From positions 21,457 to 53,456 of the forward strand of contig JBDTXR010000004.1 of NCBI GenBank assembly GCA_040006075.1: a stretch of DNA of 32,000 nucleotides. Reading direction: 5' to 3'. This DNA comes from Byssovorax sp. (GTDB lineage: Bacteria > Myxococcota_A > Polyangia > Polyangiales > Polyangiaceae). The notes beneath the pieces are model-generated. The model had not been told where the DNA came from and did no database searches. It saw only the letters and a program-made list of their open reading frames with translations. How positions within the stretch are numbered: position 1 is the stretch's first letter; every line of letters begins with the position of its first letter. The position numbers and the translations under genes were made by a program. Shown in pieces: positions 11,265 through 11,586 of this stretch.

Positions 11265-11336
11265 GTGGGCGTTTCTCATCTGGGAAGAGAGTGGACTGTG
11301 CATCCACAAAGGCGGGTTCGATTCCCGTACGCCCAC
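11265..11336 (+). tRNA. tRNA-His (GTG), copy 1
   Basis: An encoded G-1 (11265) lies opposite C73. Acceptor TGGGCGT/ACGCCCA. Anticodon arm GTGGA-CTGTGCA-TCCAC. T-arm GCGGG-TTCGATT-CCCGT. CCA encoded at 11337-11339. Confidence 0.85.
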
Positions 11337-11339
11337 CCA

Positions 11340-11408
11340 GGGACGGGTCGCTTTTCGCTCGGTTATCCTGCAACGACACTCCGAGCGGGGTTGCTCTTCA
11401 TCCGTCCT
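11340..11408 (+). ncRNA. stem / internal-loop / stem RNA fused to the 3' end of tRNA-His copy 1 (candidate Y-RNA-like element)
   Basis: The outer helix is GGACGG/CCGTCC and the inner helix is GCTCGG/CCGAGC. They are separated by asymmetric internal loops, with a pyrimidine-rich 3' side ...GCTCTTCAT, and an 18-nt apical loop. A second copy at 11520-11586 keeps both helices while the loops diverge. Confidence 0.4.
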
Positions 11409-11444
11409 CGATCTTGACCTCTTCTCGCTTACTTCACGCATCGC

Positions 11445-11516
11445 GTGGGCGTTTCTCATCTGGGAAGGGAGTGGATTGTGAATCCACAAAGGCGGGTTCG
11501 ATTCCCGTACGCCCAA
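11445..11516 (+). tRNA. tRNA-His (GTG), copy 2
   Basis: It has the same arms as copy 1, but the anticodon loop is TTGTGAA and the discriminator is A73, so G-1 is unpaired. CCA encoded at 11517-11519. Confidence 0.8.
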
Positions 11517-11519
11517 CCA

Positions 11520-11586
11520 GGACGGGTCGCTGTTGCTCGGTTATCATCTGGGTTGACTCTCCGAGCGGCAGTTTCTTCATCCGTCC
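11520..11586 (+). ncRNA. stem / internal-loop / stem RNA fused to the 3' end of tRNA-His copy 2 (candidate Y-RNA-like element)
   Basis: It has GGACGG/CCGTCC and GCTCGG/CCGAGC helices as in 11340-11408, with divergent loops. It ends 53 nt before the rsr ATG. Confidence 0.4.

Follow-up and report, generated by a model that had tools for sequence, protein, structure and literature searches.

A stretch of 32,000 nucleotides (nt) of Byssovorax sp. DNA (contig JBDTXR010000004.1, positions 21,457 to 53,456 of the forward strand, referred to below as the window) carries two tandem modules immediately upstream of rsr, the gene for Rsr, the bacterial orthologue of Ro60. Each module consists of a tRNA-His gene followed by a 67-nt RNA hairpin. 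We propose to read the two hairpins as short bacterial Y RNAs of the simple-hairpin class, similar to YrlB and Yrn2, and putative ligands of the adjacent Rsr, and we place the probability of this reading, which draws on sequence comparison and predicted folds, at roughly 0.75. The sequences show a conserved structure, linkage to rsr, an anatomy of the Y type and a zero-spacer junction with the tRNA. Y RNAs beside bacterial rsr are established, with YrlA predicted in more than 250 species, and a Y RNA next to rsr is unsurprising. What is new is the tRNA-coupled architecture. Literature searches returned no report of rsr inside tRNA arrays or of zero-spacer tRNA-Y junctions, and no report on Y RNAs in myxobacteria, the species tables of Chen et al. 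2014 (254 species) lying outside these searches.

The tRNA-His(GUG) gene of the first module occupies positions 11265-11339 (+), with an anticodon loop CUGUGCA, an unusual U at position 14 and an Rfam tRNA score of 39.3 bits. That of the second module occupies positions 11445-11519 (+), with an anticodon loop UUGUGAA and a score of 44.3 bits. ARAGORN calls them as tRNA-His(gtg) at 11266-11339 and 11446-11519, and G-1, at 11265 and 11445, is the base just 5′ of each call. Both copies have the cloverleaf, the GUG anticodon, the encoded G-1 and an encoded CCA, and the base opposite G-1 is C73 in copy 1 and A73 in copy 2. Hairpin 1 (11341-11407, +) follows the CCA with a gap of 1 nt, and hairpin 2 (11520-11586, +) with a gap of 0 nt, so that its first base comes directly after the CCA. 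Both hairpins are 67 nt long and have the form GGACGGGUCG...CAUCCGUCC. In the predicted fold of hairpin 1 (-27.5 kcal/mol, z -2.6), the stem GGACGGGU/AUCCGUCC is followed by a bulged C (11349), a G-C pair, an internal loop, the upper stem CGCUCGG/CCGAGCG and a loop beginning with UUAUC. Hairpin 2 (-33.3 kcal/mol, z -5.05) has the same architecture; the two have in common an outer helix, GGACGGGU/AUCCGUCC, and an inner one, GCUCGG/CCGAGC. A 37-nt spacer (11408-11444, +), poorly conserved between the copies, separates hairpin 1 from the second tRNA-His gene. The two modules are 83% identical over ~190 nt, and their hairpins end 232 nt (copy 1) and 53 nt (copy 2) upstream of the rsr ATG at 11640. 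These data agree with a preliminary description of the same DNA, which had reported two tRNA-His(GTG)-CCA modules with their hairpins here, the helices GGACGG/CCGTCC and GCTCGG/CCGAGC with the loop sequences, the overall fold and the 53-nt distance from the second copy to the rsr start codon.

Some peculiarities of these tRNAs recur in related loci, which are labelled here with the prefix L. The tRNA-His genes of Polyangiaceae arrays have an unusual D arm with U in place of the near-universal A14 (window copies, L015 7798-7872 and L016 11435-11508), and A73 replaces C73 opposite G-1 in L022b and L015 as it does in copy 2. In several Sorangium genomes, ARAGORN misses the tRNA-His gene though its sequence is there.

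The tRNA-His and hairpin module lies directly upstream of rsr in 15 of the 15 Sorangium genomes retrieved. It is also found upstream of rsr in Chondromyces apiculatus, in metagenomic contigs and in a Byssovorax metagenome-assembled genome (MAG), which has two copies orthologous to the two in the window; the orthologue of hairpin 1 is L022 7704-7772. A covariance model, R1, was built from 22 well-aligned hairpin copies and then used for re-alignment, and it scores the window hairpins at 66.0 bits (copy 1) and 69.4 bits (copy 2). When 572 kb were searched with R1 on both strands at a cut-off of E ≤ 0.05, 54 matches were obtained, each of them on the rsr strand, either upstream of rsr at 14-330 nt or downstream of it at 8-1741 nt. 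Y RNAs in bacteria are likewise found on the same strand as rsr and within a few kb of it. A dispersed repeat was rejected, as every copy found lies near rsr. In L017, L018 and L031 the hairpin is found just downstream of rsr, without tRNAs near the gene. These tRNA-free copies show that the hairpin is an independent module that tracks rsr, not tRNA-His.

The preliminary description had regarded helices conserved while loops drift as the pattern of a selected RNA structure. The window copies alone show no covariation because their helices are identical, and the evidence for selection comes from other genomes only, where compensatory changes support both helices. In the close family, which contains the best R1 matches (n=26), 97.5% of cells are paired and 9 of 17 pairs have changed on both sides; none of 500 shuffles reached the observed values, and sliding the partner by 1-3 columns reduced pairing to 31-50%. 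The broad family (n=54) has 96.4% of cells paired and double changes in 16 of 17 pairs, including a clean U-A to C-G swap in the putative Ro helix, adjoining the bulge. In the predicted terminal stem of this family, pairing reaches 99% of cells, and covariation is seen at 8 of 9 pairs. A plain MAFFT alignment of 27 hairpins analysed with RNAalifold recovered the lower stem, with compensatory change in 5 pairs; it missed the upper stem, whose 3′ strand was misaligned in 5 divergent sequences, and this was mended with the 22-sequence model. Conservation of the helices is thus upheld, and drift of the loops only in part, as the bulged C, the GGUUA(U/C)C that opens the loop (GGUUAUC in most of what follows) and YAUCC on the 3′ strand are invariant. 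Invariant unpaired bases of this kind, set beside helices that covary, suggest a site recognised by a protein and not merely a structural hairpin.

Spacers of tRNA operons often contain hairpins, and a short U run follows some Sorangium copies, which raises the question of whether the hairpin, with no relation to Rsr, serves tRNA operons generically as a structural spacer, terminator or processing hairpin or is one of their repeat elements. We consider this highly improbable, because the matches are confined to the vicinity and the strand of rsr (54/54), because the bulged C, GGUUAUC and YAUCC stay invariant while paired positions covary, and because the other ~25 tRNA junctions of the array in which the window modules reside have no such hairpin. 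An intrinsic terminator was rejected, as the window copies are without a U-tract.

The hairpins have the anatomy of Y RNAs. Each is predicted to fold into a terminal stem of 8 bp with one bulged C at position 9, followed by a G pair and then the upper stem. The Ro60 site consists of a 7-bp helix in which one cytidine is bulged, located in the stem made by the two ends of the RNA (PMC4726728), and the terminal stem with a bulged C that marks Y RNAs is present in the predicted structure of the window hairpins. The invariant helix is GGGUCG/YAUCC and the loop opens with an invariant GGUUAYC; UUAUC is invariant at loop positions 22-26, and all copies have UUAU at nt 22-25. YrlA has YUAY at nt 22-25 (PMC4201824). 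UUAUC is also a conserved loop motif of nematode stem-bulge RNAs (sbRNAs) and vertebrate Y RNAs. Bacterial Y RNAs that bind Rsr share the motif GNCGAAN0-1G (PMC4201824), and the orthologues from Sorangium, L017 and L018 fit it fully with GUCGAA(A)G. The 5′-strand motif of the window copies is GGGUCGCU, in which GNCG agrees and AA does not; the vertebrate counterpart motif is GGUCCGA.

At gathering thresholds, Rfam detects tRNAs only in the whole window, and in the Infernal scan with Rfam Y RNA and Yrl models, which had been suggested earlier, neither copy reached a gathering threshold. The sub-threshold Rfam matches are always to Y families. Sibling hairpins from other loci score 27-35.6 bits, with end-to-end alignments to the sbRNA model RF01656 (gathering score 38) at 31.4-35.6 bits, and a hairpin from Sorangium aligns over its full length with the vertebrate Y_RNA model RF00019 at 29.1 bits (gathering score 38). 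No YrlA at its gathering score was found by Rfam in the window or in 16 related loci. We note that canonical-looking YrlA elements of phages score 32-42 bits and fail the RF02553 threshold of 69 bits, which indicates that the YrlA model of Rfam is drawn too narrowly to settle whether an RNA belongs to the family. The internal tRNA-like domain (T arm, acceptor-like stem and D arm) was not found in the window hairpins, in which the apical region is only 18-20 nt and has no T or D arm. YrlA identity was ruled out for them, since they have neither this domain nor an RF02553 match. A partial YrlA match at 13408-13470 is an artefact in which the T arm of a tRNA-Arg is joined to the D arm of the following element.

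Two phage contigs, L071 (2840-3340, +) and L072 (7160-7880, -), encode Rsr proteins 42-48% identical to the window Rsr. Upstream of their rsr genes are 4-6 tandem Y RNAs, including canonical permuted YrlA-type RNAs and short hairpins, with no intervening tRNA genes. A short hairpin stands just before rsr, and all these RNAs share a GGGUCG..GGUUAUC..UAUCC stem. When viral contigs were scanned with a loose DNA pattern, most matches were due to chance, and only 4 contigs were confirmed by R1.

The gene downstream of the modules (11640-13322, +; 560 amino acids) had been taken for rsr, and it indeed encodes a full-length Ro60/Rsr homologue with a TROVE domain (Pfam, 2.4e-44) and a Ro60 von Willebrand factor A domain (vWA_Ro60, 6.1e-65). 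Its PDB matches at ~1e-124 are Ro60 of Xenopus and human and Rsr of Deinococcus radiodurans. Its nearest relatives are from Polyangiaceae, with 92% identity in the Byssovorax MAG and ~75% in Sorangium, and the genes flanking the locus are ordinary chromosomal genes. The rsr gene lies within an array of 34 tRNAs, as called by ARAGORN, which spans 9890-16973 of the window. In Chondromyces, Byssovorax, Haliangium, Kofleriaceae and several MAGs, rsr is also surrounded by 22-38 tRNAs, and such rsr-in-array loci (L014, L015, L016, L019, L020, L022 and L033-L037) come from Polyangia and Haliangium/Kofleriaceae relatives. The array associated with rsr in Sorangium is smaller, with 10-13 tRNAs. In the window array, a complete encoded CCA is missing from most tRNAs, and spacer lengths range from 0 to 26 nt. 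The array is otherwise near-complete, and His, Trp and Asp are represented in it solely by hairpin-linked genes. At 14272-14344 (+) there is a tRNA that ARAGORN does not call (Rfam 39.5 bits), with an anticodon loop CUGGUAU (GGU, Thr) and an odd T loop UGCAAUU.

In almost all copies of the Myxococcota loci, the hairpin starts after a gap of 0-1 nt from the preceding tRNA. The linked tRNA is His upstream of rsr and Ala(CGC/UGC) or Glu(CUC) downstream of it, and in the window tRNA-Trp and tRNA-Asp likewise precede Y-like elements. The junction base is not strictly A: most copies have CCA, L011 and L022a have CCG, and L014, tRNA-Ala and tRNA-Asp have CC. The most economical mechanism would be that tRNA punctuation forms the ends of the Y RNAs, with a 3′ endonuclease for the 5′ end and RNase P bounding the 3′ trailer. 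In such a pathway, the hairpins would be transcribed with the tRNA array and rsr as a single precursor, and an endonuclease cut at the tRNA-His 3′ end, by RNase Z or a similar enzyme, would give the Y RNA a 5′ end that coincides with the base of its terminal stem. The 3′ end of copy 1 would be generated by an RNase P cut at the next tRNA-His and exonuclease trimming to the stem, the 37-nt spacer being presumably the 3′ trailer removed after cleavage at 11444/11445, and that of copy 2 by a cut ahead of the rsr leader. Rsr would bind the invariant helix GGGU[C]G/YAUCC, while the GGUUAUC loop and the internal loops would stay free and may gate Rsr or tether a partner such as PNPase. Y RNAs normally depend on Ro to be stable. 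Release by RNase P or by 3′-end processing of the adjoining tRNA-His had been proposed for these RNAs; RNase P can define only the far end of the copy 1 trailer and not the hairpin 5′ end, which is a caveat to the tRNA-linked Y RNA reading. In D. radiodurans, Yrn2, tRNA-Asp and Yrn1 are part of one precursor, and YrlA of Mycobacterium smegmatis is cleaved by RNase P and has CCA added to it (PMC4201824). Both are precedents for tRNA punctuation.

As His, Trp and Asp occur in the array only as linked genes, release of these tRNAs is presumably required, and this speaks for a cut at the junction. It is also conceivable that tRNA-His and the hairpin stay fused as a ~143-nt chimeric Y RNA, whose 5′ tRNA module would be functionally equivalent to the YrlA tRNA-like domain. 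Such a chimera would fit the 0-1 nt spacer, the tRNA-like module required by YrlA-class Y RNAs and the tRNA-shaped Y-like RNAs of the same loci, but the linked tRNA identities vary (His, Ala, Glu, Asp and Trp) and the hairpins of L017, L018 and L031 are free of tRNAs. The atypical D arm with U14 in this tRNA-His would also fit a chimera, yet the same D arm is present in the unlinked tRNA-His of L015 and L016. With the sole His, Trp and Asp genes of a near-complete array presumably needed as free tRNAs, we give permanent fusion little credence.

The earlier designation of the hairpins as candidate tRNA-linked Y RNAs is supported by their adjacency to rsr, their linkage to the rsr strand, the covariation, the bulged C and the systematic 0-1 nt gap to the tRNA. 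Several points weigh against a Y RNA identity or its proposed biogenesis. The window copies have GUCGCU instead of GNCGAA. Copy 2 scores 25.7 bits against RF01656 (gathering score 38) and copy 1 is without a match, and no RF02553 (YrlA; threshold 69 bits) match with E ≤ 10 was found within 11150-11700. The covariation counts (alignments A5 and A7) are fitted to the model structure and somewhat inflated, and the sequences are mutually related; alignment A3, which was not fitted to the model, gives 97.8% pairing versus 29-50% in slid controls. An encoded CCA is an anti-determinant of RNase Z in some bacteria, so that RNase Z is only one candidate for a cut directly behind the CCA. A simple scan of the window for a sigma-70 promoter consensus and terminators was uninformative, so that co-transcription of hairpins, array and rsr is assumed.

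The position of copy 2, which ends 53 nt ahead of the start codon, would also suit a mainly cis-acting 5′ leader of rsr, with the hairpin as an operator or attenuator in the control of the rsr mRNA by Rsr and not as a stable RNA that acts in trans. The Sorangium hairpin has UCUUUU behind it, with a leader helix next, and a second Ro-type bulged helix over the Shine-Dalgarno sequence is kept in 30 loci. This role is difficult to reconcile with the same hairpin located downstream of rsr in L017, L018 and L031, with sibling hairpins up to 1.7 kb downstream of rsr, and with the two copies in the window and in L022, where another tRNA separates the first copy from rsr; the window copies also have no U-tract. 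We judge a mainly cis-acting role unlikely, and it could be compatible with a Y RNA role. A T-box or riboswitch leader was rejected, as no such features were found and copies lie downstream of rsr elsewhere.

The leader helix itself (11608-11633, +) has the predicted fold UUUGCCCGG-GUUU-CCGGGC[C]GGAGGG and is conserved in 30 distinct loci. Its hairpin UUGCCCGG-GUUU-CCGGGC[C]GGAGG repeats the Ro-type bulged helix in loop-closed form and overlaps the Shine-Dalgarno sequence GGAGG. Across Myxococcota, GCCCGG/CCGGGC is exchanged for GCCCGC/GCGGGC, in which the sixth pair changes from G-C to C-G. This suggests that Rsr may repress its own translation through the leader helix over the ribosome-binding site. 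Stand-alone 'inside-out' Y arms of the form CGUCG..CCCCUUGCCCG-loop-CGGGCCGACGA..GACGGUUACC, without a tRNA body, are found at L017 10850-10930 and 11285-11345, and their topology is that of the rsr leader helix.

Further Y-like elements are found downstream of rsr in the window. A tRNA-shaped Y-like RNA at 13445-13585 (+) is predicted to have an acceptor stem, a D arm, a variable arm, a T arm and UCCA, with a long arm containing GGGUCG...GGUUAUC in place of the anticodon arm. Members of this family are 120-140 nt long and lie next to rsr in L017 (9894-11539, six copies), L014 (10641-10769), L022 (9810-9952) and L027 (5809-5935), and the family is also present in L015, L016, L019, L020, L033, L035 and L042. 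In the long arm, a proximal stem by UUAUC is followed by a distal helix of the Ro-site type, UUGCCCG-loop-CGGGC[C]GA. ARAGORN calls these RNAs in intron mode only and with arbitrary anticodons, and RNAalifold predicts 28 pairs for the family, with compensatory changes in 21. In effect, the family may be YrlA in a circularly permuted form, with its ends at the acceptor stem. A Y-like hairpin at 13729-13795 (+), 2 nt after tRNA-Trp, has the predicted fold GGCGGAC[C]GGAG...GUGGGUUAAC...CUCUUUGCCCGCC and scores 27.2 bits against RF01656. A longer Y-like RNA at 14064-14191 (+), directly after tRNA-Asp, contains GGCGGGC[C]GGAGA...GGGUUAAC, the 3′ sequence UCUUUGCCUGUCC and an internal T-arm-like hairpin GAGGUUCAAAUCCUC. 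Both carry the commoner motif GG(A/G)C[C]GGAG...GGGUUAAC...CUUUGCC, and as the shuffle z-score of 14064-14191 is weak (-0.5), its Y-like call rests on motifs.

Between the Y-like hairpin and a tRNA-Ala, at 13811-13870 (+), lies a long and very stable hairpin GAGGCGGAUC[G]GAGCGCCG...CGGCGGCGCUCGGGUCCGCCUC (-51 kcal/mol, z -5.5), which has a bulged G and no UUAUC; a similar sequence occurs in L027. In L048 (368-589, +), a HEARO RNA (RF02033, 101 bits) is found ~3.4 kb upstream of a distant rsr homologue and is probably unrelated.

These elements allow a broader and more tentative proposal, namely that myxobacterial tRNA arrays are tRNA-punctuated Y RNA factories with three topologies, and that bacterial and metazoan Y RNAs are homologous. 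In the first two topologies, hairpins may abut tRNA 3′ ends, and tRNA-shaped RNAs may carry a loop-closed Ro helix as their anticodon arm; in the third, a loop-closed Ro helix may cover the rsr ribosome-binding site. Bacterial Y RNAs are not considered homologous to vertebrate clades (PMC4726728). With animal Y RNAs the hairpins share the bulged C at position 9 as well as the UUAUC at nt 22-26, which would imply true homology, and bacterial and metazoan Y RNAs would then have been inherited or transferred together with Ro60. We regard this combined proposal as possible, and on balance doubtful.

Bacterial Y RNAs have been verified in three species only, and short hairpin Y RNAs mostly elude homology searches. 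The locus family provides a covariation-backed model of short hairpin Y RNAs for a whole phylum, and it offers a biogenesis rule in which the Y RNA 5′ end would be the tRNA 3′ processing site. It also places Rsr physically in tRNA biology, within arrays of more than 30 tRNA genes, which bears on why bacterial Y RNAs mimic tRNAs. The Sorangium strains are cultivable.

Small RNAs punctuated by tRNAs are known from other systems, such as the tRNA-microRNA transcripts of murine gammaherpesvirus 68, the dicistrons of tRNA and small nucleolar RNA in plants, and MALAT1-mascRNA. In these cases a tRNA or tRNA-like fold abuts the small RNA, and RNase P or RNase Z sets its ends. They differ from the window modules in being eukaryotic or viral and in having other cargo RNAs, and the corresponding cleavage in myxobacteria is one that we infer. 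Among bacterial Y RNAs, the closest in description are YrlB of Salmonella Typhimurium and M. smegmatis and Yrn2 of D. radiodurans, which adjoin rsr on the same strand; 'long hairpin' Y RNAs of this kind were found in each species examined by Chen et al. 2014 (PMC4201824). Like the window hairpins, they are long hairpins with paired 5′ and 3′ ends. Their 5′ strand has an Rsr-site motif, which the window copies match in part (GNCG), and they are co-transcribed with neighbouring RNAs, as in the precursor that Yrn2 shares with tRNA-Asp and Yrn1, co-transcription of the window hairpins being assumed. The likeness is one of description, not of sequence comparison, and the window hairpins differ in having GUCGCU versus GNCGAA, in a 5′ end that abuts a tRNA 3′ end without a spacer, and in their location within a 34-tRNA array. 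YrlA (RF02553) shares the same kind of terminal stem and the YUAY at nt 22-25, and the YrlA-type RNAs of phages have an identical GGGUCG..GGUUAUC..UAUCC stem, whereas the window hairpins have no tRNA-like domain and a loop of about 12-20 nt. Compared with metazoan Y RNAs (RF00019) and nematode sbRNAs (RF01656), the hairpins are bacterial, have no oligo-U tail and score, siblings included, 25.7-35.6 bits versus 38. With these RNAs they share a lower stem of 7-8 bp, the lone bulged C at position 9 and an upper stem after which GGUUAUC stands in the same register.

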